This document shows, piece by piece, positions 1-49,905 of a stretch of 64,000 bases of DNA. The translations under genes were made by a program, and so were the position numbers. The notes beneath the pieces were generated by a model. That model made no database searches. It was given only the letters and a program-made list of their open reading frames with translations, and was not told the DNA's origin. The stretch lies in NCBI GenBank assembly GCA_025544715.1, contig GCA_025544715.1_4109.1; one strand, written 5' to 3'. Source of the stretch: Escherichia coli. Its GTDB lineage: Bacteria > Pseudomonadota > Gammaproteobacteria > Enterobacterales > Enterobacteriaceae. The stretch's first letter is position 1, and every line of letters starts with the position of its first letter.

Positions 1-1773
1 CTAGAAATATAATCACCAAATGAATTCATTTTTTCTTCAAAATAATTATTAACTTTTTCTGCACCATCGGTAACAGAATTGTTTTCTACTTTTACTTTGT
101 CGTCTGAACCACCAAACCAACCTTTAACAGAATCCCAAAGTTTACCAGGAAGATCCATTAGGTTATTCATAAAGCTATCAAATGCTTCTGAAACTTTATT
201 ATATCCACTACCAAAAATTTCAGTACCTAACCCTTCTAACCACTGCTCAAACTCACCACCAATCCTATCCAAATACGCAACTGCATCTTTCGCAATAGGA
301 ACCAAACCAAAACCATCAAGTGCTAACTCTCCGATAAATTCCCATGCACCATCAGTACGGTCTGCAATATCAGTAAGGTAATCCGCAATAGAATTTTGTG
401 TATCTGCATACATTTTATTAAATGGTTCAGTAAATTCTTTACTAATCCATCTATTGAATCTATCAGTGAATTGTGTTAGTTTATCTGCTGGTTGACTCTT
501 AGGATCATTAATCGCAGCTTCCATATCAAGTAGCTGTTGGTTGAAGGTTGCTGCCGTAGTATTTCCTAATTGTATCTGATTTAATAAATCTTGCTTTATT
601 AGTTCTTTGTTCTTTTTAACAAATTCCAATTGTTGACGGCGAATTTCTTGTGAATCAGTAACGCCACTACGTACCAAGTTCTCACCTAAATCAGCAAATT
701 GGTTCAGTACTGGAGTCAATAAATCATCTGGTACTCCACCAATAGTTAAACGATGTGAAATTAAACGTAGAAAATCTGCACCAGCATCACCCATACTGGC
801 AGCAGCTTCGTTAAATGCTTTTGATGTTGCAACTGCTGCTTTACTAGATAATCCAGAATAGTTTTGTAATGCGATTTGCATTGAACGTGTGTCTAATGAT
901 TTATCTAAGTTTTGTGTTTTATTTAATAGTGCATCAACTGACTCACCCATACTTTTACTGAACTTAGTCATGCTCATGATAAACTGTTCAGTACTTTTTG
1001 CTTGATCCATACTACGTAACATTTCTCTTCCACCAAATTGCTTTTGGAATTTAATATTACGTGCAGTTAAATCAGTTAATGTTTTTTGTGAAACACCATA
1101 TAAACCTAATTGATTTTGTGCTTGTTGCACAGTACCCAATAATTTACCAAATGTAGAAACACCATCACCATATGCACCATCTAATTGTGCAACAACGGCA
1201 CTATGAGTTTGTAATGCTTCACCAAATGCATCAATACTCATCATTGATGCACCAGCACCTTTTAATATGGAGCCGTAACCTTCAGATAGAGCGACACCAG
1301 CACTGTTTATTCTATTATAAACTTCAAGCTGTGCATTTAACACATTATAAACTGCTAAACCAGCGTCAGCAACCAATTTGAAGGCAGATGCTGCTGCACC
1401 AACTGGACCTGGGATCATTGCTAATGAACCAGCAAATGAAGATGCACTCATTCCTAGTGAGTTTACAACATTGCTAACGTTTGCAGACGTACTCATCATA
1501 GTTTTGCCGACATTCGATACTTCAGATGATAATGATTTAAATATTTTTCCAAATTCTTTACCATCATCAGCTTTGTTATTTGTTCGAGAGCCACGGTTTC
1601 CAGTACTTGATGAATTACTTCCATTACGTTTTCCACTTTTAGAACCGGATTTCTTTCTATCATTTTTTATATTTTCAGCCAATAACTCACGTATAGCACT
1701 CAAACTATCGTTGTTATCTTTAGTTTGATTAACCAACTGCTGGAGTAGGTAATCACTTGTATTTCCAGCCATA
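1..1773 (-). CDS. Large tail structural protein, partial (tape-measure / tail-length-determinator-like); N-terminal ~590 aa in window, C-terminus beyond window start
   Basis: Minus-strand frame is open from ATG at 1771-1773 to the window edge by manual translation (MAGNTSDYLLQQLVNQTKDNNDS...), no stop in ~590 codons. Gly/Ala/Ser-rich and helical segments resemble tape-measure proteins. Absent from ORF track because it has no in-window stop. Confidence 0.5.
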
Positions 1774-1860
1774 ACATTCCCTTTTAATAGATGTATTATA
1801 GAAATATTTATGAAACTATAGAGAATATAAAAATTAGTTTAATTTAATCTTTTTTGGTCT

Positions 1861-1868
1861 TATAAATA
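1861..1868 (+). promoter_or_regulatory. T4-type late promoter motif TATAAATA
   Basis: Exact TATAAATA about 35 nt upstream of ATG 1903. Confidence 0.55.
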
Positions 1869-1902
1869 CTAAAACACATTTATTACATGGAGATTTAATA
1901 AA

Positions 1903-2739
1903 ATGGCTATGAATCCACTTGCTAAGTACACTAAAATTGAAGAGATCAGTACTAAGTTAGTTACAAACGGCGTTATTCCTTATAAAGAAGGAGTTCTAGG
2001 TCCAAAAGGTGTCAAATGTGGAGTTTGTGCACGTAGTGCACGTGATGAAATGACACTTAATACCCCCGATATGTTACTAAACGGAGATGCAGTATCCCGT
2101 GTTATTGAAAACTGTGTTCCTAATGTAATTGACGCTGATGAGTTGTATGTAAATGACGTTGAAATGCTTCTTATTGCTATTAAAGTTGCTTCTAAAGAAG
2201 AAACATATGATATTAACGTTGTATGTCCTGAATGTGAAAAAGAAGGTCGATTTGAACGTAATCTATCATATCTTCTTGAAACTGCACAAGCATTTGAAGA
2301 AATCCCATCAATTGATTTAGATAATGGGCTACGTTTGGAATTTAGACCACTGACATGGAAAGAATATTCATCGTTTGCTGAACGCATGTTCAGTGAGCAG
2401 CAGAAGACTAAGTTTCTTGAAACTGCTGATATTGATAAAGATGAAAAAGTAAAAATATTTTCTGAAGTATTTGAAAACATGGCTCAACTTAACTTCGATA
2501 TGATTGGTGGAGTTATTGCAAAAATTATAACACCAGATGGTGATGAAGTAGTTGAAAAAGAATTTATTAATGAATGGCTTGGACAACAATCGAAGGGAGT
2601 ACTTAAACTAATTCGTGAAAAAATGGATGAAGTACTTGAAATTGGAGTATCACATAGTATGGAAGTAGAATGTGATGGATGTAATCATCAATGGGAAATT
2701 GATGGACTAAAATATGATCCTAGTCATTTTTTCGAGTAA
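1903..2739 (+). CDS. Hypothetical protein with three CxxC pairs (zinc-ribbon-like), late-expressed
   Basis: 278 aa ORF; GGAG 10 nt upstream of ATG; exact TATAAATA at 1861-1868; motifs CGVC, CPEC, CDGC. Confidence 0.6.
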   Translation: MAMNPLAKYTKIEEISTKLVTNGVIPYKEGVLGPKGVKCGVCARSARDEMTLNTPDMLLNGDAVSRVIENCVPNVIDADELYVNDVEMLLIAIKVASKEETYDINVVCPECEKEGRFERNLSYLLETAQAFEEIPSIDLDNGLRLEFRPLTWKEYSSFAERMFSEQQKTKFLETADIDKDEKVKIFSEVFENMAQLNFDMIGGVIAKIITPDGDEVVEKEFINEWLGQQSKGVLKLIREKMDEVLEIGVSHSMEVECDGCNHQWEIDGLKYDPSHFFE

Positions 2740-2948
2740 TGCTTCTCCAGTCATCTCCTGAAGAAATACAAGAAGTACTGAAGGAGATAGAACTGAATAA
2801 GTCAGAAATCAAAAATGCACTAATGGAATGTTCTGTATATATGGATAACATTGACTATGGAACACTCCTTAATATGCCATTAATAGATAGAGACTTATTA
2901 GTTAAGTCTTTTAATAAAAAAATTAAAAAACAAAACGAGAAGCACTAA
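2739..2948 (+). CDS. Small hypothetical protein (69 aa), translationally coupled to upstream gene
   Basis: ATG overlaps the upstream TAA stop (TAATG); followed by a hairpin plus T8 terminator. Confidence 0.45.
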   Translation: MLLQSSPEEIQEVLKEIELNKSEIKNALMECSVYMDNIDYGTLLNMPLIDRDLLVKSFNKKIKKQNEKH

Positions 2949-2959
2949 TTTTCATATAG

Positions 2960-2985
2960 CCAGCACATTGTTGCTGGTTTTTTTT
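2960..2985 (+). terminator. Rho-independent terminator
   Basis: Hairpin CCAGCA-cattgt-TGCTGG followed by T8. Confidence 0.7.
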
Positions 2986-3159
2986 GGTTTTAAACTACAG
3001 AATTATTTGAATTGAATTATGAAAGGATTAATTTTAATATTATTGGATTCATCTAACTCATTTCATTCGTTAGCTGAAGAATATTCGTTACTACGTAACT
3101 CATATTCATTTAATTAAATTAATTATAAAGAACTTTAAAAGATTTAATACTTGACGGGA

Positions 3160-3620
3160 TTTGTTGAGGACATTTTCATCCCCCCGCAGGGGAATGAAGA
3201 CAATAAAAAAGAGACAATGAAGTCTCTATTTCTTGACGCTGATGGTTTCAGCATTTATTGTATTGCGAATTTCTTAAAAATATATTAAGAACGAAAGCGG
3301 GTTGCTCTGTTTCTCTCTATCGCAGTCATGTGCAACGGTCGTCAGTCTTAATCATCCTGACACTCACCTGAAAGTCTATACAATCAAACTTCAGGCTGTT
3401 TATTAAAATCACTTAATAAACTCCCTTAGCAAATCTGGTAAGGTGCGATCCTTATATGTCTATCGAGGAACTCTCTGTATGCTTATCGGAGTTCTTTATT
3501 GAGCCGCATTGCCGTGAGGGGTTCAAACTATGCCCACATCTAACGGGTTTCTTTTGCTCATCGCACTGTTGAACTGCTCATCTGCCATCTACATTTTCGA
3601 TAGGATCAGGTTCTAATTTA
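3160..3620. other. Structured ORF-free segment; candidate non-coding RNA or regulatory region
   Basis: No ORF of 60 aa or more between 2949 and 3784; locally higher GC than flanks; several dyad symmetries (e.g. AGAGAC-AATGAA-GTCTCT at 3209-3226; AGGAACTC...GAGTTCTT around 3468-3502). No tRNA cloverleaf recognised. Confidence 0.25.
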
Positions 3621-3784
3621 TATGCATTTCTGCATTCAACAGGATTGTCATTACTACAACAAACATTATAGCACAAACTTTAAAGTTGTCTCACTATTTT
3701 TATAAAAATATTCATTAAGTACTTAAAATATTGCAAATAACTAATCCATAAATATTTTGATAACAAATAGTTTGGTGAGGAATT

Positions 3785-4276
3785 ATGAAAAAAAGATTAA
3801 AAGATAGTAAGGATGCTGCAAACTATCGAAACGAATTGCTAAAGAAACAAAATGGAATAGATCCTATAATTAACGAACCAATAACTAAACCAGTACTGGA
3901 TCACTACCACTATGGTAACCAACATTGTAGACAAGTTCTTCAAAATGAAGTCAATGCTTGGGAAGGAAAGGTGCAAAACAGCTTCAATCGATATATGAAG
4001 CACTTAACTGATAAACCATTATATGAGGTACTCAGAAATCTTGCTGATTACCTAGAGCGTAATAACAGCATTCCTGACGATGAACAAGTTATACATCACA
4101 CTGCACTAACTGTTGATGTTAATAAGTTTAAAAGGCTCCCAGCAACACAGCAAAACGCGATTCTGGAAGGGTTAGGAGTTGTCCCTGGTAGCAACACTAC
4201 TGCTCGTGTAAAGCAAGCTAGAAAGCTGATTAAAGACGGTAAATTAAATATGGTTGATATAAAAAAAGGGAGCTAA
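3785..4276 (+). CDS. HNH / endonuclease VII-like domain protein (zinc-binding cysteines not conserved)
   Basis: 163 aa ORF with GAGGAA RBS; segment LDHYHYGNQHCRQVLQNEVNAWEG aligns by eye to the endonuclease VII core (DHDH...RGLLCxxCNxxEG) with Cys positions replaced. Confidence 0.45.
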   Translation: MKKRLKDSKDAANYRNELLKKQNGIDPIINEPITKPVLDHYHYGNQHCRQVLQNEVNAWEGKVQNSFNRYMKHLTDKPLYEVLRNLADYLERNNSIPDDEQVIHHTALTVDVNKFKRLPATQQNAILEGLGVVPGSNTTARVKQARKLIKDGKLNMVDIKKGS

Positions 4277-4292
4277 GGCTCCCTTTATCTTT
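4268..4292. terminator. Bidirectional Rho-independent terminator between convergent genes
   Basis: GGGAGC-taag-GCTCCC with A7 upstream and TTTATCTTT downstream; the plus-gene stop codon lies in the loop. Confidence 0.75.
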
Positions 4293-4294
4293 AA

Positions 4295-6442
4295 TTAGAA
4301 AACATCATCAAGAGTTGCATATTCAACAGTACTGAAACCGTCTTCTTTAACAACTTTGAGGATTTTTTCAGTCTTAGAAAGTAACTCTTCTCTATGGGAA
4401 ATAGCATAAACGTTCTTACCACGTACAGCAGCCATATCTTGGAAGATAGACCACACACGTAGAACACCACTTGAGTCAAGACCTTGGTCAATCATCTCAT
4501 CAATGATAAGAATATTAATACTTTGGTATAATGACTCATATGTATCACGGAAAGCACAAGATAATGCGATGTTTACCCTTGTACGCTCACCTCTACTAAG
4601 CTGTTTATAGTCAAAGTACTGCCCACTCTTCTCAATTTCAACACTCAAATCATTCAAAAACACAACATTATGCTCAGAACCGCACATATCGATATAGTAC
4701 TGAAGTCGTGTATTCAAATATGAGATATTTTGCTCAATAATACGTTTACGGACATAAGAATCCTTGTTTAAAAGTAATTTAACCAAGAAATCTTGGTGAT
4801 TTGACATTTTATCAAGATTATTATAGTCGCTATAATCGATTGGTACTAAAGAATCAGTCTTCAGAGTATTAATTTGGCTAATAAATGTGTTAGTAGTCTT
4901 CAATTCACGATCTAATTGCTGTGATAATGAATTTACAGTCATTTCTAACTCTTTAACTTCATATTTGTTTAATGTATCTGGAACTTCCATTAGTTCATAT
5001 GAGTTAAGTTCATCATATGATGACATAAGTTCATTTGCATAGATGTTTATTGGTTCTTCTTCACTCTTTCTGACCAATTCTTGAAGCTTATGTTCATGCA
5101 TTTGTGCTTCCGAAAGTGTATTATAATATGTCACAGGTTTAGGTGGCATATCAAAAATCTCAATACTATCAATTTCTTGAAGTAATGTTTCAATTTCAGA
5201 AGAAGAACTATCAATTTTAGCTTGAAGATCATTAATAGTACTTTGGATTTTGTCTTTAATTGAAGAAGTATGTTCGTTATGTTCCAATTCAGACATACAA
5301 AGTGGACATTTGCTGTTTTCAACTGTTGATAATTTGTCAATTTCAGCATTAATTGAACATTCATATCCTTTTAAAGCTATTTTTAGTGAGTTTAGTTTTT
5401 GTTCTTTGAAACGTTTTTGGTTATTATTCTCTTTTAGAATACCCTCTAACTGTTTCCATATCTCCAACTCATTATGATTTTCCAATTCTGCACTAATATC
5501 AATAGTTTTTAGCTTATCAATGCTTAGATTTAATGCTCTTTTAGATCTTTCAAGTTCACGGTCATATGCATCAAATTTTAAAGCCAACTCTTGTACACGG
5601 CGTTCAATTTCACCACGCTTTGCGTTATGAATAAGAGCTTTCTCTTTTATGTCAGCAGCTTCATAGAGGTCATTAAAGTCTAAAGTTTTATATATATTCA
5701 ACTCTTCATTTAACTTAGATACTCTATTATTTTTATCAATTTCAAACTGGTTTGCCTGTTCTTGTAGTGCCTCAATACTTTTTTGAATACGTTCATTACT
5801 TGCAGCTACAGTTTCATTTTTGAACTTTTCTTGTTCGGCTAAACGTTTAGTATCCTTATACATCTCCTTTAGCATTTCAGCTTTTTCCGTCAACTGTGTT
5901 ATTCCAAGAAGTTCTTCTATCATATCACGTTGTTTTTGTGTGGATAAAGCTAAGAAAGGTTCAACGTTAGCATTCAGTACTACAATATGTTCAAATAATA
6001 ATTGAGATATACCAAGAATTTCATTCAAATCTTCTTGTGTGTCTTTCTTTTCTCCCCTTGATTCATCTTCAATTTTATTATCTTTCCCTAAAGTAACAAA
6101 ATTGAAATACGTGGGACTTCTCCCACGTTCAACCAAATATTGTACACCATCTTTTTCAAACTCTACAACTACTTCACAATTTTTTCCATTAGTTTTATTG
6201 ACTAGGTTAGGAATTTTAATATCGTTACCAATACTTTTACCAAATAATCCAAAAACTAATCCTTGAATAATAGCACTTTTCCCTACACCATTTCGACGTC
6301 CGGTACTGTCACCACCTTCAATAACTGCATCATTATTTTGACCCAGTACTAATGAAATGTCGGAACCATTCAAGTCAATTGATTGTGGTGCATTACCAAA
6401 TGAAAAGAAGTTCCTCATAGATATACGTGTAATGTTTAGCAT
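4295..6442 (-). CDS. Rad50/SbcC-like recombination ATPase (T4 gp46-like)
   Basis: 715 aa; Walker A RNGVGKSA, long coiled-coil middle with CPLC zinc-hook, signature LSRGE, Walker B LIIDE. Confidence 0.85.
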   Translation of the reverse strand: MLNITRISMRNFFSFGNAPQSIDLNGSDISLVLGQNNDAVIEGGDSTGRRNGVGKSAIIQGLVFGLFGKSIGNDIKIPNLVNKTNGKNCEVVVEFEKDGVQYLVERGRSPTYFNFVTLGKDNKIEDESRGEKKDTQEDLNEILGISQLLFEHIVVLNANVEPFLALSTQKQRDMIEELLGITQLTEKAEMLKEMYKDTKRLAEQEKFKNETVAASNERIQKSIEALQEQANQFEIDKNNRVSKLNEELNIYKTLDFNDLYEAADIKEKALIHNAKRGEIERRVQELALKFDAYDRELERSKRALNLSIDKLKTIDISAELENHNELEIWKQLEGILKENNNQKRFKEQKLNSLKIALKGYECSINAEIDKLSTVENSKCPLCMSELEHNEHTSSIKDKIQSTINDLQAKIDSSSSEIETLLQEIDSIEIFDMPPKPVTYYNTLSEAQMHEHKLQELVRKSEEEPINIYANELMSSYDELNSYELMEVPDTLNKYEVKELEMTVNSLSQQLDRELKTTNTFISQINTLKTDSLVPIDYSDYNNLDKMSNHQDFLVKLLLNKDSYVRKRIIEQNISYLNTRLQYYIDMCGSEHNVVFLNDLSVEIEKSGQYFDYKQLSRGERTRVNIALSCAFRDTYESLYQSINILIIDEMIDQGLDSSGVLRVWSIFQDMAAVRGKNVYAISHREELLSKTEKILKVVKEDGFSTVEYATLDDVF

Positions 6443-38218: not shown

Positions 38219-40360
38219 ATGGCAGTATTTTCTAATTTTGAAGGAACTATGCAGCCCAAATTCATATTGGGGAAAAAAGGTGCTTCAATAAATTTTATCA
38301 ATGATTCAGTTTCTATAAAAGATTATCTAGGAGAACAGTTCCTGCCACTTAAGGTAGGAACTTCATCTGATCCTAATTCAGCAGTTAACGTAAAATATCT
38401 TGAAGATAATCCTAATGCATTATTTGGTGTTGTACCACCTACCGATGATATAGGAAAGAACAATAATACGTATTTTCAAATTGATGAAGATGGTATTGTT
38501 GATATTTTTGCAAAAAGCAATGGTACATGGGTAAAATCATTATACATTAATAAAAAAGTTCTATCCAGTAAAAATGGTGGAGATTTCATCGGACTTATTA
38601 CTGGAGGTACAGTTCAACAGGCACAGTTTTATATAACACCAGAAGAATTTGGTGCTAAAGGTGATGGTGAAACTGATGACACTGCTGCTGTAAATTTATG
38701 TGCTGCTTATGCTAAAGAAAATAAAATCCAAATTCAGGCTGGTGGTAATTACCGTATCAAAACTGCAATATATCTGGAAGATGTAACTTGGTTTGGGGGA
38801 ACTATTACTGGTAACGGTGGTACTATGGTATCCGTTATTAATTCCCAAATACAATTTGCAACACTTACTGGATGTTATTTAAAATTCTTCGGTGGCGATG
38901 GTAAGTTTTATTTTAATAAATTTATAAACATCACAAGTACTGCTGCATTTTTAATGCAAGGCATGACACAACCAGGTACAATAGATTTTTGCTTTAATGA
39001 AATGACCCAATGTAAGTATGGTGTTCTTCAACAAGGTACTGGTGAGAAAATGAAGGTTGGTAGATATTCATATAACCACATACATGATATATATGGTGAT
39101 GCAATTGAACTAAACGTAATTAACTCACACTATCCTGATGGTTTTGTTATTGAAGGGAACATAATTGAAAACGTTGATGGTTCTAACGCTCCAATCCCAC
39201 TTTCAAACTGGGGTATTGGTATTGGTGTTGCTGGTTCTGGTCCTTATGGTTTAGATGCACCAGATACACAATATGTCAGAAACTTTGTTATTAAAAATAA
39301 CAGACTATATAATGTTAGACAATGTATCCACGTTGAATTAGGCATGGACTTTAAAATACTTAATAATGAAGTTTATCCATCATCTTTAGTTTCTGTTGGT
39401 ACTGGATTAACCACTGCTGGTGTTATAACTTATGGTTCAAAGGAATTCATTATTGATGGATTGACTGGTCATTTGCTTAATGATCCTTCTATCACAAATA
39501 GAATGGTTTCAATAAACTGGGGTGTAACTTCTGGTCGTTTTGCTGGACCACCTAGAAACTTTAAAATTTCTAATCTCTATATTCCAGAGTCTTCTATACT
39601 TGTTTATACTTCCGGTTCTGACAATTGGTTAAATAATACAGAATTGAGCAATATCACCTGTTCTAAAATTCTTTGGCGTGGTTTACCATCATCATCTAAA
39701 TTTAGTGATATTAGAACTAAAGAATTAGATGTAATTGGTCAACATCTCTCTACAGAAGGCGAAGGTGGTGGTATCTATACTCGCTCTAAATATACTTATA
39801 CTAATTGGACTAACTGTGTTGTTCAAGATGATTGTAATGTTTCAAAATATAGTTTTTCTAAAATGTATGTAGACAGAATAGACCAATCATCTAATAACTT
39901 TAAAGTTACAACTGCAATCGATGGTACAGGTCACCGTGGCCCAGTACTGATACCTGTAGTTGAGCAATATTATATTCCATACGATACTTTTCCTGGGGGA
40001 CGCTATTTCTCTGAAGGTACGATTATTCATAAACAATCGGGTGGAAAATATATTGTAACTGTTGGTGGTTCTTTTTTCGGAAAATATGACACAATTAGAC
40101 AAACGGTAGCAGGACAAACATACATAGAAGCATTGGGTGTGTCATGGGGTGAAAACCAATATGCAAAAGCTGCTGGTACTGAGATTATTATATCTGGTGC
40201 TGGTGAAAATGGTGGTGATTTGAGAACGTATATAACTCGTGCAGTGTATGTTGTAAACAACGTATATAGAATTGATATTGCAGATCCTATCATAACAGCA
40301 ACTGCCGCTGGTGCAGCATTAAAAGCCGCCCAACCCGTAACTTACATAACCCTACCATAA
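38219..40360 (+). CDS. Tailspike with pectate-lyase-like right-handed beta-helix (putative polysaccharide depolymerase)
   Basis: 713 aa; conserved N-terminal anchor (MAVFSNFEGTM...) followed by FGAKGDGETDDTAAV, a hallmark of pectate-lyase-fold tailspikes. Confidence 0.7.
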   Translation: MAVFSNFEGTMQPKFILGKKGASINFINDSVSIKDYLGEQFLPLKVGTSSDPNSAVNVKYLEDNPNALFGVVPPTDDIGKNNNTYFQIDEDGIVDIFAKSNGTWVKSLYINKKVLSSKNGGDFIGLITGGTVQQAQFYITPEEFGAKGDGETDDTAAVNLCAAYAKENKIQIQAGGNYRIKTAIYLEDVTWFGGTITGNGGTMVSVINSQIQFATLTGCYLKFFGGDGKFYFNKFINITSTAAFLMQGMTQPGTIDFCFNEMTQCKYGVLQQGTGEKMKVGRYSYNHIHDIYGDAIELNVINSHYPDGFVIEGNIIENVDGSNAPIPLSNWGIGIGVAGSGPYGLDAPDTQYVRNFVIKNNRLYNVRQCIHVELGMDFKILNNEVYPSSLVSVGTGLTTAGVITYGSKEFIIDGLTGHLLNDPSITNRMVSINWGVTSGRFAGPPRNFKISNLYIPESSILVYTSGSDNWLNNTELSNITCSKILWRGLPSSSKFSDIRTKELDVIGQHLSTEGEGGGIYTRSKYTYTNWTNCVVQDDCNVSKYSFSKMYVDRIDQSSNNFKVTTAIDGTGHRGPVLIPVVEQYYIPYDTFPGGRYFSEGTIIHKQSGGKYIVTVGGSFFGKYDTIRQTVAGQTYIEALGVSWGENQYAKAAGTEIIISGAGENGGDLRTYITRAVYVVNNVYRIDIADPIITATAAGAALKAAQPVTYITLP

Positions 40361-40376
40361 AGGAGATTATATTAAA

Positions 40377-41273
40377 ATGGCAGTTTTTTCTAATTTAGAA
40401 GGAACCATGAAGAAGTCCTTCATTCTTGGGAAGAATGGTGCACAGATTACCACAAATGGTAGTGTTGTGCAAATTCAAAACTACTCAGGAACACAACTTC
40501 TTCCAATTTCAGCAGGTGAACCAACTGCAAACACACACTTGGTTACATTGGGATATTTAAACGCACACAGTGGTGGTGGTAGTTCTGGTATCTTACGTGG
40601 AACAACAGCACCATCCGATTCTATTGGCCTAGATGGTGACGTTTACTTTTTGGTTGATAGTACTAATGTTCTTCAAATTTATATTAAAGATCTTGGTATT
40701 TGGAAACCATTTAAAGGTAGCTCACCTGGAACTGATAGCTCATATGTAACTACTGAAATAGTTCCTGTTTCTGCATTTACATTAGTACCAGATACTACTG
40801 ATCATTATACTTACACACTACCAGAATCAGTTCATGGTAGAGGTTCTGATATTATGATTCAACTACAAGGTGACCCAGGTAATGTTGCATTGGAATCAGT
40901 ATTCCAAACCACAGTAACAGTTAGTGGTATTGGGGATATAACAATTGATGTGATTGGTCAAATCACAGATTATGCAAGTGTTAAAGTAAACATTATAGGA
41001 GCAACCACAATGACAGTACCTTATAGTAAATTAGTAAACCAAGCAGATTGGGTTTCTAGTGCTGGTGATTTCACAATCACTATTCCAGCATCCGAACACA
41101 ATCAAACCCCAGATAATTTGTATATTTCAATTTATGCAAATAAAACACCTGGAAGTGTTGCGTCATCTCCATTCGAGTTGGTAGTGACTGATACACAAAT
41201 TAGTAGTACTGGTGATGTAATCTTCACTTCTGATATTTCTTTCAGTGGTAAGATTGTCATCTCCGGTAAGTAA
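40377..41273 (+). CDS. Tail fibre/spike protein sharing the N-terminal anchor of the preceding tailspike
   Basis: 298 aa; N-terminus MAVFSNLEGTMKKSFILGKNGAQ... is homologous to the 38219 gene, C-terminus unrelated; strong terminator downstream. Confidence 0.55.
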   Translation: MAVFSNLEGTMKKSFILGKNGAQITTNGSVVQIQNYSGTQLLPISAGEPTANTHLVTLGYLNAHSGGGSSGILRGTTAPSDSIGLDGDVYFLVDSTNVLQIYIKDLGIWKPFKGSSPGTDSSYVTTEIVPVSAFTLVPDTTDHYTYTLPESVHGRGSDIMIQLQGDPGNVALESVFQTTVTVSGIGDITIDVIGQITDYASVKVNIIGATTMTVPYSKLVNQADWVSSAGDFTITIPASEHNQTPDNLYISIYANKTPGSVASSPFELVVTDTQISSTGDVIFTSDISFSGKIVISGK

Positions 41274-41280
41274 AAAATTA

Positions 41281-41315
41281 ACCAGACTTGTTCTAAATAA
41301 GTCTGGTTTTTTATT
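41281..41315 (+). terminator. Rho-independent terminator
   Basis: ACCAGACTT-(9 nt loop)-AAGTCTGGT followed by TTTTTATT. Confidence 0.8.
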
Positions 41316-41410
41316 ATATTTGCTTTTGTCAAATAATGTATTAATTGTTGGATAACAGCATAATAAAACTAAATATATACATATTAACAAGGTTATAATG
41401 GAGGGTATAA

Positions 41411-44400
41411 ATGTACTCAATAAAAACTGACTTAGATATTACTGGTGCTGGTACGGTTGGTAAGGATCTTTTAGTCAAAGGAAATGCTGTTTTCAATAAT
41501 AACCTAACTGTAAATGGTACTGTAACTTTTGCAAATGCAACTTTTACTGCCATTGAATCATCAACTGCCAACATTACATCTACTTTAGATGTTGGTGGCA
41601 AAGCAACACTTTCTGGTGGTCTTGGTGTTGAGGGTAATACTACAATCGGTAGTGCAGTTGTCGGGTCTGATACAGCAACAATTAATTCAAACGCTACCTT
41701 TAACGGTACTGTATCAGTTGGTTCTGATTTTACACAAACTGCTGGTACAACCACTCTACAAGCAACTAAAGTTAAAAACTTAGAAGTTGCTGAAACAACA
41801 GCATTTAAAGGTAATATTACTGCTGATGTTGGCACTACTGCTGCATTTGATAAAATTACTGCTAATACCGCAGAAATTACTAATGTAAGTACAACCGATA
41901 TTAGTAGTACTGGAACTGCTACTTTTAAAGATGTAACCATTAGTGGTACATTAGGTGGTCAGTTTAATCTTTCTGACTTAAATGCAGTAACATTGAACGT
42001 TTCTGGTGCATCTAACCAACAAGGTGCAGTAACTTTCGGTGCTAACGTAACTGGTATTAACAGTACTGCTACTTTTAAAGACATTCGTATTGGTTCTAAC
42101 TCTGAATCACAAACCTTCAGATTAAGCTTCCCTTACACTGCTCCTGGTAAACGCCCAACTGTTATTCTACAAAACGAAATTCAGTCCGAGCTAATGTCAC
42201 CTGCAAACTTGACAGTATTGACCTCTGCTTCTTTTGGTAATGCGTCATTATCTTCTTATGGTATTACTGGTAATGGTCTAAACAAATTGGATTATCTAAC
42301 AGTTTCTGGTAACAACACACAATCTCCAGACACACCACTATTAGAAGTTCAAAAAGGCAAAACCAAAGTTGCTGACTTTGAAGTAACCGGAACTGCAACT
42401 ATTCCAAATATTGAAAGTACTGGGACTGCTAATTTTAATAACATTAATGTTTCTGGTCTTCTTGGTGGATCATTCCAACTAGACGATATTAATGCAGTAT
42501 CATTGAACGTTACTGGTGCAACTTCATTAGTTGGTGGTGTTACTCTTGGTTCTAATATTACTGGTTATAACAGTACTGCATCCTTTAAATCTATCAGCTT
42601 AGGCCAAAATAGTCAAGATGCGGCAGTGAAACTAGGTTTTGGATATACTGCACCTGGTCAACGTCCAACAGTTATTCTACCTAACGAAGTTCAATCAGAA
42701 GTCGTTTCTCCTTCTACATTGAACGTTCTTAAAACAGCAACTTTCGGTAACGCTTCGCTTTCCACTTATGGTATTACTGGTAACGGTCTAAACAAACTAG
42801 ATTATCTAACTATTACTGGTAACGAAACACAAGCTCCAGGTACACCATTCCTACAAGTTGGTGGTAAAGCAATTCTTAATGATGTTGATTTTACTGGTAC
42901 AGTAACTGGACTAACTGTTGATGTTAGTGGTCAGGATCTAACACCTAATTCTGTTGTCGCGGCAGCAAATATTAAAGGTGCAACACTTGAAAGTACTGGT
43001 AACACTACTGTGGGTGCTAAACTAACTGTTACTGGTGATATTGCTGGTACAACTGCAACTCTTTCTGGTGCATTATCTGCTGGTTCAGTAAGTTCTGGTA
43101 CTATTACTGGTACAACTTCAGTTTCAGCACCAACAATTAGTGCATCTACTGAAGTAACTGCTCCTACTATCACTGCTAGTGGAACTTTAAGTGGTCAAAC
43201 CATTAACGGAACTAATATTAGTGCAACAACTCTTACTGCACCAACTATTAGTGGTAATACAAACTTTACAGAAAATGTTGATATTACTGGAAATCTAACA
43301 GTTACTGGTACAGTAACCCCAGGTACAATTGATTTGAGTACTACTGATGTTAGTGCTAAATCAATCACTACTACCGCTGGTGCAAATATTGGTGGCGATC
43401 TTGTGGTTCAAGGTTCTTTTGATTTATCAGCAGCAGACATTAACGTTAAATCACTAACTTCTTCTGGTATTGTTAAAAGTAATGACCTTGTTAATGCTAA
43501 CGTACTTCCAGTACTTAATAGTACAACAGTCACATCAACAACTGTTAATGCTGATGATATAACTGTTACTGGTTCTGCAACTCTTGGAACTGTATATGCA
43601 AGTACATCTGTTCTAGTTGGGTCAACTTTAACTGTAACTGGTGAAACTACAACTGCATCTTTGGTTACCCCAACCATTTCAAATGCAAGTGGTGTCACTA
43701 TTTCCAATAATACAAATGTAACTGGTGATCTAACCGTTACTGGTGCAGTTATTCCAGGCTCTATCGATCTAGCAACAACTGATGTAAGTGCGAAATCTAT
43801 TACTACTACTGCTGGTGCGACTATTGGTGGTAACCTAACTGTTAATGGTACAGTAGATCTTACTACTGCTGATGTTACTGTCAAATCTTTAACTAGTACT
43901 GGTGCAATTGTTAGTAATGAATCCACAATTAGTAGTGTTCTACCTAAACTTCAAAGTACTGATGCAACTATTGCAACCCTTGGTTCAACAACTGCAAATA
44001 TTACTAATTTGAATGTTACTGGTGCATCTACCGTAGCTGACGTAACTTCTTCAGGTAAAGTTAAAGCAGTTTCTGTAGAAACCCCAACAATTAGTAACGT
44101 TGATGGTGTATCTATTTCCAATAATACATCTATTACTGGTGACCTAACAGTTTCTGGTACAGTAACCCCAGGTGCGATTGATTTGAGCACAACTGATGTA
44201 AGTGCGAAATCTATTACTACTACCGCTGGTGCAAATATTGGTGGTGATCTTGTTGTTTCTGGTACAGTTGATTTAAGTGGTGCTGATGTATCTGTTAAAT
44301 CTCTAACAAGTACTGGTATTATTACAGTTAGTAGTGCAGAAGGTATTAACGTTCTACCTAAAGTTCAAAGTACTGAAGTTACAGTGTCTGCTCTAAATGC

Positions 44401-47390
44401 AACAAATGCAGTAGTTTCTGGTGATGTTTCAGCAGCAACAGCTTCAATCTCAGGTGCAATTACTGGTGGTTCAGCAACACTATCTGGTGCTGGAACTGCT
44501 CTAAATGTAACTAATAATGCAACTGTCGGTGGTACACTTACTGTTGGTTCTATTACTTCAGCGGCAGAAAATGTATCCATTACTAAAAATACCGCTGTCA
44601 CTGGTAATTTAGCAGTATCTGGAACTCTAACTGCTGGTGTTATTGATTTGAGCACAACTGATGTTTCTGTGAAAACTTTAACTTCTCTTGGTGACGCAAC
44701 AGTTCGTGGTAACTTAACTGTTGATGGTTCTATTGACCTAAGTTCCGCAAACATCGTTGGTGTAACACTAGAAAGTACTGGCTCCACTACCGTAGGTACT
44801 GATTTGATACTAACTACTGGTAACATTACAGGTAGTCCATCTATTTCTGGTAACTTAGGTGTAACTGGAACTACAACTTTAACTGGTGCAACAACAGTTT
44901 CAAACACATTGAATACTGCTGGTAAACTAACAGTTAATGCTGGGGGAATTCAGGTTGTTGCAGGTGATATACAAGTTGATTCTGGAACTATTAATGCTCC
45001 TAGTGCTAATATTTCTGGTAGTTCAACACTTAATAGTGCTACTGTAACCACTACACTCGGTGTTACTGGGGCAGCAAGTATGAATGGTGGTTTAACTGCT
45101 TCTACTTTGGATGTAACAGGTGATAGTACAGTACAAAAACTAACTGTTAAAGGTGTATTTGTTCCTGAAGGTGGTTTGGACCTTTCCGGTGCTGATCTTA
45201 ACGTGAATAGCGTAACTGCTGCAACCACATTAAGTGTTACTGGTGCTAGTACTCTGACTGGTGGTGTTTCCACTTCAACAGTATCTGCATCCGGTAAGGT
45301 AACCGCACAAGAACTAAGTACTGGTACATTGGATGTAACCACAAATGGAACTGTTGGTGGAACTTTAGGTGTAACTGGTAAAGCAACTGTTGGCTCACTA
45401 GATTCAGGTGCAATATCTGCTACATCTGGTACATTTAGTACTACACTGGATGTAACTGGAGCAGCAACATTTGGTAATAATGTTAATATTACTGGCACAT
45501 TAACACCAGGTGCATTGGATTTAACTAGTACTGATGTAGTTGCTAACAGTCTTTCTGTTGCATCAACCCTACATTCAGATGGCAATGCAACAATTGGTGG
45601 TACATTAGGTGTAACTAGTGCAGTAACTGCTCCATCAATCGCTCTTAATGGTGAAGGTACTGCGTTGGCAGTTACTAATAACGCAACCATTGGTGGTACA
45701 TTAGGCGTAACTGGTAAAGCAACTGTTGGATCACTAGATACAGGTGCAATCTCTGCAACATCTGGTACATTTAGTACTACATTAGATGTGACTGGTGCAG
45801 CAACCTTTGGTAATAATGTTAATATTACTGGCACATTAACACCAGGTGCATTGGATTTAACTNNNNNNNNNNNNNNNNNNNNNNNNNNNNNNNNNNNNNN
45901 NNNNNNNNNNNNNNNNNNNNNNNNNNNNNNNNNNNNNNNNNNNNNNNNNNNNNNNNNNAACTAGTACTGATGTAGTTGCTAACAGTCTTTCTGTAGCTAC
46001 AACTCTACATTCAAATGGTAACGCAACCATTGGTGGAACATTAGGCGTAACTGGTGCAGTAACTGCTCCATCAATCGCTCTTAATGGTGAAGGTACTGCA
46101 TTAGCAGTTACTAATGACACAACGATTGGTGGTACATTAGGCGTAACTGGTGCTACAACTTTAGGTTCTCTAACAACCTCTGGTGCAGTTAAAACTGGTG
46201 CTAATGTTATTATCGGTACTAAAATTGGTGAACAACCAGAGACAGTTCAGATTTTCCCTAATACTTACATTGCAGGCTCCTTGCGTGTAGATGGTGGTAT
46301 CAACGCTGATATTGACGTTAGTGGTCAAACAATTGAACCTTATGCAGTTGTTGCGGCTGACACTATTAGTGCAGCGGGTAATATTACTTCTGGTGCAGAG
46401 TTGATTTCCAAATCAGCAACTATTGGTGATGTTGGTTCACAAAACAACAACTTAACAATCAATGGTAACGTAGTTAACAACGGTAACTTTACAGTAACTG
46501 GTCTACTAAACGCAACACTAAACCAAGCAAACTCTGACGTGGCTGTTAAATCATTAACTGCAACCAACAGTGTTGCTGCTGGTACTAGTATTACCGCAGG
46601 TACAAGTATTACTGCAACTGGTCTACTAAAAGGGAACACCCTTGAAGTAACTACTACTGGTTCATTTGGTGGTGCAGTAACAATGTCAAGTGGTGCTAAC
46701 ATTACTGGAACCGTTGGAATTACTTCTGGTAACCTAACTGTTGGTGGTGATATTTCTGCAACAGGTACTGCAACCCTAGCAGCAACTTCAGTAACTACCA
46801 TTACTACTTCTGGTGCAGCAACACTTGCTAGTGCATCTGTTACTGGAGCAGCAACAATCGGTGGTACTTTAACTGTTACTGGTTTAATGACTGCAAATGG
46901 TAGTGTTGTTTTAGGTGACGCTGCTGCTGATACATTAACTGTCAATGCAACATCTTCTTTCAAAGAAAATGCAGTATTTGATAAAGATGTAACTGTAACT
47001 GGTCAATTAACAACTACTAATGCTGACCTAACTACTACAACAGTAACTACTAAAAAATATGATGTTATTCCTAATCAAGTAACTTCTTCTGTTATCGCAC
47101 CAACTGGTACTTGGACCCCAGACGGTACTAGCAACGTATACTTTATCACTCTAGATCAAGATACCACTCTAGCACCAATCACTGGTCTAATCGGTGGTGG
47201 TAAAGCATCTTCAGTATACATTTATGTGAAACAAGATGCAACAGGTAATAGAAACTTTACTACTGATGGTACTTATGCGGTTGTTGATGGCACACTGAAC
47301 AAAACTGCAAACTCTGTAACTATCTACCAAGTCATTTATGACGGTGTGAGTCCAGTAACAGATATGTTTATTGCACAACGTACTGCTTAA
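41411..47390 (+). CDS. Giant repetitive tail fibre protein (about 2,000 aa or more), interrupted by an assembly gap
   Basis: ORF track splits this into 41411..45964 and 46281..47390, but the stop after the N-run is a frame artefact: sequence after the gap continues the same repeat in an open frame (TSTDVVANSLSV...). Thr/Gly/Val-rich beta-strand repeats of about 112, 140 and 155 aa. Confidence 0.65.
45377..46150 (+). repeat. Tandem 336 bp (112 aa) near-identical repeat units within the fibre gene, copy number unresolved
   Basis: Unit starting GGTAAAGCAACTGTTGG at 45377 recurs at 45713, and a third partial copy follows the gap. Confidence 0.8.
45863..45958. other. Assembly gap (96 N) inside the tandem-repeat region of the giant fibre gene
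   Basis: Run of N; flanking sequence is the same position in consecutive 336 bp repeat units (pre-gap ends ...GGATTTAACT, post-gap begins AACTAGTACT...). Confidence 0.95.
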
Positions 47391-47406: not shown

Positions 47407-47431
47407 GGTGTCACTCATTTTGGGTGACACC
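47407..47431 (+). terminator. Stem-loop after the giant fibre gene (no clear U-tract)
   Basis: GGTGTCAC-(9 nt)-GTGACACC; downstream sequence is not T-rich. Confidence 0.35.
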
Positions 47432-47454: not shown

Positions 47455-48234
47455 ATGTTCACATATGTGAAAGGAAATTCAAAAGAAAATTATGAATTGG
47501 GAAACATTATTTCCAATCCAATTGGTGTAAAAGGACTCAAAGAACGTCCTGGTGCAACACCAGAAGATCCACAAACCTATCGTTATCTTTATAGTGATAT
47601 TAGAACTCTTTATGGTATTTCAAGTAAAGATGGTTCACCAGTAGAACCAAATGATGCTGTTAGAAAAGAAGAAGGTTTTTGGTGGTTAGTGTATAAAAAT
47701 GTTGGAAATGTTAATGCTATTGAACAACCGTTGGAGTTTATTAAATTAAAAGATGAAAATCAACCTATTGTTGAATTTTTTGAAGATGCCACAGAAGAAT
47801 ATAAAGCACTAACTGTTCTTAAAACATATCATTATATTGATATACCAATAGCAGATGTTAAAGCTGATTTAAAAGCAAGAACTATTTCAGAACGTACAAA
47901 TCGTATGAATTCTGGTTATATGTTCAATGGTCATCGTTACAGTACTGATATGTCTGGTCGTCAAATGCTTCTTAATTATTATACACAAGTCACTTCAGGT
48001 TCTGAAAGTGTTTCTATTTTTCTTGATGACGCAATTGTAAAATTATCTGCTGCTGAAATGACACAACTATACACTGAAGCCTTTGCTATGATTGAGCAAT
48101 TGTTTACAGAATGTGACAATCAGTGTGCTGCAATTGACGCAGTTGATGATTTAGATCCTGATGCAATTTATAAGGCACAACAAGCTGCAACTTGGGTATA
48201 TGAAGGTGTTGATATTCCTGAACGTATACGTTAA
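47455..48234 (+). CDS. Hypothetical protein (259 aa), possibly fibre-associated (assembly/chaperone?)
   Basis: ORF with GAGGT RBS between two fibre genes; function assigned by position only. Confidence 0.45.
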   Translation: MFTYVKGNSKENYELGNIISNPIGVKGLKERPGATPEDPQTYRYLYSDIRTLYGISSKDGSPVEPNDAVRKEEGFWWLVYKNVGNVNAIEQPLEFIKLKDENQPIVEFFEDATEEYKALTVLKTYHYIDIPIADVKADLKARTISERTNRMNSGYMFNGHRYSTDMSGRQMLLNYYTQVTSGSESVSIFLDDAIVKLSAAEMTQLYTEAFAMIEQLFTECDNQCAAIDAVDDLDPDAIYKAQQAATWVYEGVDIPERIR

Positions 48235-48291: not shown

Positions 48292-49905
48292 ATGTATAAT
48301 ATAAGAACAGATATTATTGTAAATGGTGATATCAGCTATGACGGTGATCTAATAGGTAAGATTCCAGTACCTGATATTAGTTCTAAAAATAAAAATATTT
48401 TAATTCATGAAAGTGATGGTTTATATGTTCCAGATAACACTATTAACTATCAAGGTGGTACTGGTATATCAATATCCTCTAATTTAATATCTACAAAAAT
48501 CAGTTCAACTGAAGGTAATATCCTTAGTAATGATTCTAACGGGTTGTATGTTCCTGATAATACGGCAAGCTACATAGCTGGAAATGGTATCAATGTTAAT
48601 ACAAATGTTATATCTGCTAAAGTGAGTTTAAATTCTGGAAACATTCTGATTTCTGATACTAATGGTCTGTATGTTCCTAATACATCAATTGTGTATTCTG
48701 AGGGAACTGGTGTAGAAATAAGTAATAATACTATTTCAGCTAAAATAAGTACATCTCCTAATAACATAGTTACTATTGCAGAAGGTGGTTTATATGTCCC
48801 TGATAATACAGTAACATATACAGGTAGTGACAGTATTAAAATAGATAATAATATTATATCATCAAAAGTAAGCACATCTTTAGGAAATATCCTTACAACT
48901 GATAGTACGGGTCTATTCGTACCTGATAATTCGATAACGTACAATGCGGGTAATGGGATTGTAATTAGTGATGAAGTGATTAGTGTTGAGGTTGACCCTA
49001 CGCCAGAAAATATATTATCTTCTACTAGCAATGGTTTATTTGTTCCTAACAATACTGTAACTTATAATGCTGGCAACGGAATTTCAATTAACTCTGATAT
49101 AATAAGTGCTAAAATTAGTTCTACTTCTGGTAATATACTATCTACTGACAGTACTGGATTGTTTGTGCCTAATACAAGAATAAATTACGTTGGTGGTACT
49201 GGTATATCAATTAGTTCAGAAACAATTTCAACCAAAATAAGCACAACACCAGGAAATACTTTAACAACTGACGTAAATGGGTTATATGTACCGACTGGTC
49301 CATCCTCATATACTGCTGGAAATGGTATAACTATTGACAGTAATGTTATTTCGTCTAAAATAAGTAATACCTCTGGTAATATATTAACATCAGATAGTTC
49401 TGGATTATTTGTTAATGGTAATAATACTACTAACCTAGTTCGTAGAAAAAGAGAATTATATTATTCAAACTTAAATATACAATTCACAGATGGAATTGAA
49501 CAGAATTTAATTCAAATACTTAAATCATTGACCCCCACTAGTGGAACACTAGATAGTTTCTTCAATACAACAAGTAATAAGCTAAATGTTTATAATTTCA
49601 ATTCATCTCTAAATTTCAAATTAAATATATACGGTACATGGACTACTAGTTCATCTAATATGAGTTTTGCTATTAATTTTACAAATACTCAATTTAATAA
49701 TATTAACCAAGTTAGAACACCAACAATCACAGTTGATACTATTTCATTTAATACATTTTTAAGTGTTGATGAAAATGGTAACCTAGTAACTAATGGAACA
49801 CCTATTACGTTAATGTCACATGGTGGCAAGTTTACAGTCACTAATTTATTATTAATTGCTGAGCAAATCGTTCCACCTTCAATGAGTGGGGTTTCTGTAG
49901 TGTAA
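48292..49905 (+). CDS. Tail fibre-like protein with about nine tandem ~40 aa repeats
   Basis: 537 aa; repeated unit ...S(D/N)GLYVPDNT..Y.(A/G)GNGI.I..N.IS.K(I/V)S...GNIL...; N-terminus MYNIRTD... resembles the giant fibre N-terminus MYSIKTD.... Confidence 0.55.
   Translation: MYNIRTDIIVNGDISYDGDLIGKIPVPDISSKNKNILIHESDGLYVPDNTINYQGGTGISISSNLISTKISSTEGNILSNDSNGLYVPDNTASYIAGNGINVNTNVISAKVSLNSGNILISDTNGLYVPNTSIVYSEGTGVEISNNTISAKISTSPNNIVTIAEGGLYVPDNTVTYTGSDSIKIDNNIISSKVSTSLGNILTTDSTGLFVPDNSITYNAGNGIVISDEVISVEVDPTPENILSSTSNGLFVPNNTVTYNAGNGISINSDIISAKISSTSGNILSTDSTGLFVPNTRINYVGGTGISISSETISTKISTTPGNTLTTDVNGLYVPTGPSSYTAGNGITIDSNVISSKISNTSGNILTSDSSGLFVNGNNTTNLVRRKRELYYSNLNIQFTDGIEQNLIQILKSLTPTSGTLDSFFNTTSNKLNVYNFNSSLNFKLNIYGTWTTSSSNMSFAINFTNTQFNNINQVRTPTITVDTISFNTFLSVDENGNLVTNGTPITLMSHGGKFTVTNLLLIAEQIVPPSMSGVSVV
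48409..49420 (+). repeat. About nine tandem ~120 bp coding repeats (approximate bounds)
   Basis: Recurring GLYVPDNT / GLFVPDN-containing units in the translated ORF. Confidence 0.6.

Follow-up and report, generated by a model that had tools for sequence, protein, structure and literature searches.

The window analysed here (the whole stretch of DNA, 64 kb) carries a very large tail-fibre gene interrupted by the window's only run of N (n=1), an assembly or scaffold gap of 96 N at 45863-45958 to which no strand applies; all other features described below lie on the + strand. The gene occupies a conserved position between the gene for a 298-aa structural protein (40377-41273), closed by a terminator-like hairpin and T run (41280-41308; a 13-pair stem, then TTTTATTATA), and that for a 259-aa virion protein with a DUF4376 domain (47455-48234; PF14301, E 1.1e-9), whose place next to the fibre gene is shown by synteny to be conserved and which may be a partner of the fibre or help to assemble it. 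Read from the sequence, a Shine-Dalgarno-like GGAGGG (41400-41405) stands 5 nt 5' of the ATG at 41411, and an 8-bp GC-rich hairpin without a T run (47407-47431) lies right after the stop codon. The annotation of phage UE-S1 marks terminators in the equivalent intergenic spacers. The 5' part of the coding sequence (41411-45862, codons 1-1484, no stop) begins with MYSIKTDL, as does every orthologue, and the 3' part (45960-47390) consists of 476 codons and a TAA at 47388-47390. Both pieces match one profile, PHROG 4549 (tail fiber), the N-terminal piece at positions 1-220 in its best stretch (E 2e-153) and the C-terminal piece at positions 725-869 (E 3.3e-78).

Taken literally, the gap breaks this gene in two. 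A TAG at 45962-45964 stops the upstream frame when this is read through the 96 N, the open frame on the other side of the gap (45960-47390) lies one base off the upstream frame, and the mechanical list of open reading frames accordingly cuts the gene into 41411-45964 and 46281-47390. With the two frames one base apart, an intact gene rules out 96 as the real length of the gap. The contig before the gap ends ...GGATTTAACT and the contig after it starts AACTAGTACTG..., the AACT at 45959-45962 duplicating that at 45859-45862 as a 4-nt overlap of both ends. Deletion of the Ns and of one AACT gives 5,880 nt in frame, with a single terminal stop and 1,959 aa, in agreement with the preliminary description, which had proposed one gene split at the gap, with its frame continuing, that encodes a protein of about 2,000 aa. 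The same description held that a 336 bp repeat runs on across the gap through the AACT overlap, and this too is borne out: repeat pair D8 has a spacing of 336, so that the periodicity continues past the gap, and pair D6 a spacing of 436, i.e. 336 + 96 N + 4. We estimate that two independent breaks would fall within ~4 nt of the same 336-nt phase with a chance of ~3%, which argues that repeat continuity over the gap is not fortuitous. Real sequence of exactly 96 nt in the gap was rejected: it would disrupt the frame, and also the phase of the repeat, since 100 is no multiple of 336.

Several repeat families make up the shaft, as had been suggested, but their copies are not perfect. A 170-aa module is present in two copies (41921-42931; aa 171-340 and 342-507, 58% identical; pairs D7 and D11, spacing 510), and is followed by four copies of a 131-139-aa module (43220-44896, at 43220-43612, 43646-44062, 44072-44488 and 44534-44896), which share 39-58% protein identity and lie 138-155 aa apart from start to start (pairs D2, D4 and D10; spacings 435, 414 and 465 nt). 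The third family is the 112-aa (336-nt) unit, of which unit 1 occupies 45353-45688 (pair D8) and unit 2, interrupted by the gap, spans 45689-46124 (174 nt at 45689-45862 plus 162 nt at 45963-46124, making 336 nt); the array amounts to two full units and ~20 aa of a third. 'Long perfect tandem repeats', in the words of the preliminary description, is wrong for this array, since its two full units are identical at 91.4% of DNA and 93.8% of protein positions and their longest exact run, also the longest exact intragenic repeat, measures 89 nt. The first copy of that run lies at 45470-45558 and the second (45806-45994) consists of 45806-45862 and 45963-45994 with the assembly gap inside it. The 336-nt array was not called by Tandem Repeats Finder, and whole-protein self-BLAST gave the identity match alone, the module repeats coming from chunked queries. 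The shaft is rich in Thr, Gly, Ser, Val and Ala.

By sequence comparison, the gene is the orthologue of 121Q gp571 (AIT14461) and phAPEC6 Gp256 (QDF13883), the tail fibre of Asteriusvirus, i.e. of 121Q/PBECO4-type jumbo myoviruses of E. coli; it is an already known gene, and the gap is a routine assembly artefact. Protein identity to these two orthologues is 97.7% over 1,841 aligned residues, the 3' part (45960-47390) is 98.8% identical in DNA to the 121Q group, and start, stop and flanking genes agree. Synteny is likewise identical to that of the relatives (colanic-acid-degradation-like protein, structural protein, fibre, DUF4376 protein), and in complete orthologues (121Q, phAPEC6, UB and others) the fibre is a single CDS in this same neighbourhood. 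The 121Q and phAPEC6 genes differ from the present one in being 5,526 nt rather than 5,880 nt long, in having one 112-aa unit rather than two and in lacking the residues TGTVTP (6 aa) of the first 140-aa module. The gene of phage UB (AXC36801), in contrast, has the 5,880 nt, 1,959 aa and two units of the seamless join and aligns to it with zero indels, while the overall identity of the UB, PBECO4 and SD-6_S16 genes is lower than that of the 121Q group (96.1% in protein for UB, about 92-94% in DNA). The PBECO4 record was linearised within the fibre gene and is mis-annotated; its ends overlap by ~650 nt at 98.3%, and removal of this redundancy leaves 5,881 nt, the one-base difference being due to end error. 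Joining these ends naively would give 6,543 nt, or about two extra units, and was rejected for that redundancy. For SD-6_S16, collinearity with the join extends over merged positions 1-4,896, where the record breaks off within the gene. Mass spectrometry of phAPEC6 virions identified Gp256 from 15 unique peptides, the protein is listed among three putative tail-fibre proteins, and the virions show baseplate fibres and 'hairy' whiskers (PMC7247149). A search of the fibre protein for homologues at the level of 90% clusters gave four weak matches only, and the literature on phAPEC6, CBB, fEgEco12 and JP4 offered nothing on a receptor or on the 112-aa repeat.

Repeat copy number does vary among isolates, as the preliminary description had expected. 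One 112-aa unit is found in 121Q, phAPEC6, ph0011 and UE-S1 and two in UB, PBECO4, JP4 and fEgEco12 g316; three units are absent from ~18 related genomes, all of which carry one or two. By coordinates, the gene is 5,526 nt long in eleven 121Q-group phages (12 records). The 170-aa module, present twice here, occurs three times in phage JP4, and fEgEco12-type phages have two separate tandem fibre paralogues, each with its own MYSIK N-terminus and C-terminal domain. Although the gene in the window has two units, its nearest overall relatives are the one-unit phages of the 121Q group. The single unit of 121Q is a mosaic of the two units seen here, with no clean unit 1/unit 2 crossover, and the half-units that flank the gap also give mosaic patterns at the sites diagnostic of unit 1 and unit 2 in UB, PBECO4 and JP4, patterns which probably arose by gene conversion. 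The TNDTT variant that follows unit 2 supplied a 56-nt isolate-specific probe, which had zero matches in viral, genome and metagenome contig collections and so brought to light no ungapped copy of the strain.

We consider that the locus holds a single intact Asteriusvirus tail-fibre gene, encoding a protein of ~200 kDa, and that the gap marks an assembly break within an internal repeat; we would put the probability of this at about 85%. It is likely, if somewhat less assured, that the true sequence is the seamless join itself, 5,880 nt and 1,959 aa with two units and nothing missing. The two 336-nt shaft units share the 89-nt exact stretch, and the assembler would have stopped inside its second copy; a repeat of this kind is sufficient alone to account for a break in a short-read assembly. 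The preliminary description took the opposite view, reading the gap 'most likely' as a sign of collapsed tandem repeats, and we now regard this view as unlikely. It would give the gene at least three units, at least 6,216 nt and at least 2,071 aa. Both flanks lie in one repeat phase, so that any integer number n of extra 336-nt units in the gap keeps phase and frame alike; tandem units with long stretches of exact identity do get collapsed by assemblers, and 89 nt is identical here; unit number varies within the family; and the gap as scaffolded, 96 N, has a positive size and is not an overlap; if it is a paired-end estimate, this size falls between -4 and +332. Against this, the resolved units are only 91% identical, so reads can tell them apart, the join already has the length of the UB/PBECO4 allele, with which it is collinear, none of ~18 sequenced relatives has more than two units, and the 89-nt repeat explains the break.

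Two further explanations bear on the state of the gene and of the stock. A phage stock of mixed genomes differing in unit number (one and two, or two and three), in which conflicting read paths broke the assembly, would be in keeping with the occurrence of both one-unit and two-unit alleles in closely related phages, with the nearness of this two-unit gene to the one-unit 121Q group and with the mosaic nature of the 121Q unit, as recombination between units would give. We think it very improbable, since the 89-nt exact repeat explains the break sufficiently and since two further records, PBECO4 and SD-6_S16, likewise have a terminus inside this gene and at a distance of a few hundred nt from the repeat, which would be in line with a generic assembly problem. 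It is scarcely credible that the missing stretch contains a stop codon or a frameshift, or unrelated inserted DNA (a homing-endonuclease gene, for example), which would make the locus two genes or a pseudogene: the literal 96 N does put the halves out of frame, with the TAG at 45962, and fEgEco12-type phages do have two tandem fibre paralogues, but here the piece after the gap begins mid-unit with neither start nor anchor, unlike those paralogues, every close relative carries a single unbroken CDS at this locus, and the 4-nt overlap restores phase and frame exactly.

With the gene read as a single seamless join, the protein plan would comprise an N-terminal anchor, a shaft of nested modules (2 x 170, 4 x ~140 and 2 x 112 aa) and a C-terminal beta-sandwich. 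Unequal homologous recombination between units may add or remove whole in-frame modules, and such recombination would leave both one-unit and two-unit alleles in nature; one 112-aa unit may correspond to ~7 nm, scaled from the fibre of phage phiTE. A bolder proposal is that the 112-aa unit is a naturally switching length module operating through the 89-nt stretch, so that stocks mix one-, two- and possibly three-unit fibres, the allele of this isolate (three or more units, or a mixture) is new to complete genomes and reach is tuned in ~7 nm steps to the thickness of the host capsule or O-antigen; this we hold to be distinctly unlikely. What can be said is that whole 112-aa and 170-aa modules come and go between fibres that are otherwise 96-98% identical, a tidy case of fibre-length evolution, presumably by unequal recombination, that leaves current understanding unchanged. 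The practical consequence lies in annotation. Automated annotation of this gene would yield a pair of fragments, of which one contains 32 X residues and a false stop, and at least two public records, PBECO4 and SD-6_S16, have the same gene at their ends. A correct gene model is needed to compare receptor-binding proteins and predict host range among Asteriusvirus therapy candidates.

The MYSIKTDL-type N-terminus, common to Rak2-like jumbo-phage fibres and conserved across these phages, presumably acts as the anchor. The C-terminal beta-sandwich domain (47073-47387, ~105 aa) was modelled by AlphaFold2 with a pLDDT of 93.6 and a pTM of 0.84; it stands at the C-terminus of ~35 cluster representatives, is conserved at the very end of many phage fibres 500-2,120 aa long, and may bind a receptor or dock another fibre component. 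The shaft, modelled as an AlphaFold2 monomer (pLDDT 73.5), has almost no intrachain strands, and an intertwined oligomer therefore fits better than a self-contained solenoid. A bactofilin (PF04519) type of single-chain beta-helix was rejected, the scores of 19.8 and 18.0 bits lying below the Pfam gathering cutoff of 27.9, as was the YadA-like adhesin label of the 3' fragment in PBECO4, there being no match to the YadA head, stalk or anchor in Pfam at E <= 1. No curated fibre family or domain in Pfam or NCBIfam matched the fibre protein.

The sole solved structure detectable by sequence is the long tail fibre of phiTE, a Pectobacterium phage of the Vequintavirinae (PDB 9CUY and 9MJN, chain g, 793 aa). 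This fibre, of the phiTE/rV5 type, is a trimer whose shaft is predicted to form an extended beta-helix measuring 512 A (PMC11972413). The shaft of our N-terminal piece aligns to chain residues 205-447, i.e. to shaft only (E 3.5e-17), and the C-terminal domain, about 105-120 aa ending ...DVFIAQR, is common to both fibres (E 8e-13 for this domain together with shaft; alignment to 9CUY_g 540-792). By analogy with its phiTE homologue, the shaft probably forms an intertwined trimeric beta-structure. The phiTE protein is less than half as long and differs in its N-terminal attachment region: the MYSIKTDL-type N-terminus is shared with jumbo-phage fibres instead, and the baseplate-attachment region of phiTE (9CUY_g 14-171, a helical bundle and a globular domain) has no counterpart in the alignment of the N-terminal piece. 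Residues 14-171 are also the only part modelled experimentally, and the homologous C-terminal domain lies outside the experimental structure. The database label 'long tail fiber proximal subunit', given to 121Q gp571, originates from T4 gp34, which, like the present protein, is a fibrous virion component of a phage with a contractile tail, very long and internally repetitive; as a statement of homology the label is unsupported, since searches of PDB, Pfam and NCBIfam gave no gp34 match and a phmmer comparison with every PDB chain (E <= 1) yielded the phiTE fibre alone. Shaft-repeat number varies in other viral fibres, e.g. in the adenovirus fibre shaft. There, too, whole in-frame modules are gained or lost and length changes with the anchor and tip domains unchanged, but the adenovirus fibre belongs to an unrelated family and fold, and the units of the fibre described here are of 112-170 aa in one to three copies.

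The plus-strand fibre gene that is cut by the assembly gap (41411-47390) is an already known gene. DNA searches assigned the window, which is AT-rich (34.7% G+C), to the genus Asteriusvirus, E. coli jumbo myoviruses of ~350 kb (types 121Q and PBECO4). In these searches, the pre-gap piece of the gene showed 95.3% identity to 121Q, phAPEC6, E9.1 and others and 92-94% to PBECO4 and UB, the post-gap piece 98.8% identity to the 121Q group, and the 16.6 kb downstream 96-98% identity to the same phages. The 121Q counterpart is a single CDS of 5,526 nt, gp571, flanked there as in the window by a tail protein, a colanic-acid-degradation/pectate-lyase-like protein and a 298-aa structural protein upstream and by a 259-aa DUF4376 protein downstream. 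Its label, 'long tail fiber proximal subunit', is that of T4 gp34, for which sequence searches provided no backing. The phAPEC6 orthologue, Gp256 (180 kDa), is one of three putative tail-fibre proteins listed for that phage; 15 unique peptides identified it in virions after purification, and the same report ties it to no particular visible fibre (PMC7247149).

Two neighbouring genes are also of note. The 713-aa 'colanic acid degradation' protein (38219-40360, plus strand; phrog_6117), which has a weak pectate-lyase-like match under the Pfam threshold, is probably a depolymerase tailspike of the same receptor-binding cluster as the fibre. Two genes downstream of the fibre, a 537-aa ORF (48292-49905, plus strand) has a tail-needle-knob domain of the Sf6 type (PF16532, E 6.7e-28; phrog_1030); it is replaced by an 85-nt spacer in 121Q, measures 455 aa in UB and PBECO4, and looks like a variable receptor-binding cassette.

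The fibre ORF starts at ATG 41411, preceded on the same strand by GGAGGG (41400-41405) and a terminator-like hairpin (41280-41308), and continues without a stop for 1,484 codons until it reaches the only run of Ns in the window (45863-45958, 96 N). Translated literally through the Ns, this frame stops at TAG 45962-45964, and the open frame after the gap (45960 to TAA 47388-47390, plus strand, 476 codons) differs from it. The contig ends before the gap with ...GGATTTAACT and resumes with AACTAGTACTG...; deletion of the Ns and of one duplicated AACT yields 5,880 nt in a single frame, encoding 1,959 aa, with one stop, which is terminal. The real gap therefore cannot be 96 nt long if the gene is intact. 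The 96 Ns and the 4-nt duplication (45863-45962) add up to exactly 100, which may hint at a nominal 100-N gap, partly filled. The preliminary description had proposed a single gene continuing across the gap, and the joined ORF bears this out, as does the finding that its two halves match opposite ends of a single PHROG tail-fibre profile.

A repeat finder paired 45329-45526 with 45665-45862 (spacing 336 nt, 89% identity) and 45523-45736 with 45959-46172 (spacing 436 nt, 89%). As 436 = 336 + 96 + 4, the 336-nt periodicity runs on exactly across the gap, so that the proposed continuation of repeat and reading frame through the AACT overlap also holds. The joined gene has two complete 336-nt (112-aa) units on the plus strand, at 45353-45688 and at 45689-45862 plus 45963-46124, and a degenerate third of ~20 codons comes after them. 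The repeats had been described as perfect, which they are not: the two units share 91.4% DNA and 93.8% protein identity, and TRF called no array of 336-nt units. The protein further contains two copies of a 170-aa module (aa 171-340 and 342-507; 58% identity) and four modules measuring 131-139 aa, which start 138-155 aa apart and are 39-58% identical; all lie on a background of pervasive low complexity (T 19%, G 12%, S 11%, V 10%, A 10%) with a weak 6/12-residue periodicity. Opposite the gene lie minus-strand ORFs of 172-294 aa (41341-41940, 43408-43926, 44365-44907 and 44950-45834), which are side effects of the gene's repetitive sequence and biased composition; the PBECO4 record annotates comparable antisense ORFs (97-348 aa) as genes.

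Within the gene, the longest stretch to be repeated exactly measures 89 nt (45470-45558 and 45806-45862 plus 45963-45994), and the gap falls 57 nt into its second copy. Such a repeat is enough to halt a short-read assembler, and a 4-nt overlap is too short to be merged by a scaffolder or gap-closer. The gap is a routine repeat-induced assembly gap within one known tail-fibre gene.

An intact gene permits gap lengths of -4 + n x 336, a series that includes additional 336-nt units, and the preliminary description had regarded collapsed repeats as the likeliest state. That view is not favoured by protein alignment, in which the joined gene is collinear with the two-unit gene of UB (AXC36801, 5,880 nt) with zero indels and 96.1% identity, and the 121Q/phAPEC6 protein (97.7% identity) is without exactly one 112-aa unit and a further 6 aa elsewhere. 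The fibre gene of Salmonella phage SD-6_S16 likewise matches the join collinearly until its record ends. In a census of relatives by gene length and unit count, one unit was found in eleven genes of 5,526 nt and in ph0011 and UE-S1, two units in UB, PBECO4, SD-6_S16, JP4, the fEgEco12 paralogue g316 and, by similarity, CRJP21, and three units in none. On the strength of the collinearity with UB, PBECO4 and SD-6_S16 and of this census, we put the probability that nothing is missing from the gene at roughly 0.7-0.75. Extra units hidden in the gap are unlikely, and a stop codon, an insertion and a mixed stock are, even taken jointly, less probable still. In two attempts to decide between these states from unit-diagnostic SNPs, the units proved to be mosaics of each other, and the same strain did not turn up when three public collections were scanned with an exact probe.

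Several database records are themselves broken at this gene. That of PBECO4 (KC295538) is linearised inside it, and the two record ends share ~650 nt at 98.3% identity and differ by indels. The gene at first seems longer; with the redundancy removed, it has the two-unit structure and a length of 5,881 nt, the single surplus base coming from an error where the record ends. In place of the real plus-strand gene, which has no annotation there, the record shows three 'hypothetical proteins' on the minus strand and a fragment of the 3' end named 'YadA domain protein'. The SD-6_S16 record (OR699182, 3001-7885) ends within the gene at the same position as that of PBECO4, and small indels truncate its annotated CDS; the SD-2_S15 record begins within the 3' end of the gene.

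The sole solved structure found by sequence was the phage phiTE long tail fibre (9CUY/9MJN chain g; E 3.5e-17 for the pre-gap and 8e-13 for the post-gap piece). This fibre is a trimer of which only residues 14-171 were built, the remainder being a predicted extended beta-helix with a length of 512 A for 793 aa (PMC11972413). At the ~0.65 A per residue that follows from this figure, a 112-aa unit would contribute ~7 nm and the complete fibre would be ~125 nm long. AlphaFold2 modelling of 194 shaft residues as a monomer (pLDDT 73.5, moderate) gave essentially zero intrachain strands; the predicted shaft therefore fits an intertwined oligomer, and a self-contained bactofilin-like solenoid, for which Pfam bactofilin matches fell below threshold, is disfavoured. 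The C-terminal 135 residues, modelled with 28 homologues, form a confident beta-sandwich (pLDDT 93.6, pTM 0.84) with weak structural neighbours (best Foldseek E-value 2.7e-3); this domain may be a tip that binds a receptor or glycan, or it may serve as the platform on which a further fibre component docks.

The suggestion that copy number varies among isolates was correct, and the variation is modest: fibres that are near-identical in other respects have one or two copies of the 112-aa unit and two copies of the 170-aa module, or three in JP4. The JP4 fibre (PQ330092, 1765-8154; 2,129 aa) owes its length to this third copy of the N-terminal module, besides its two 112-aa units. In phages of the fEgEco12 (PP777464, 3163-13967), CMSTMSU and BF17 type, the whole fibre gene is tandemly duplicated (products of 1,644 and 1,906 aa), each paralogue carrying its own anchor and its own C-terminal domain. 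Cluster representatives with both the MYSIKTDL N-terminus and the C-terminal domain measure 1,159 to 2,120 aa, in agreement with evolution of the shaft via in-frame gain and loss of modules, probably through unequal homologous recombination.
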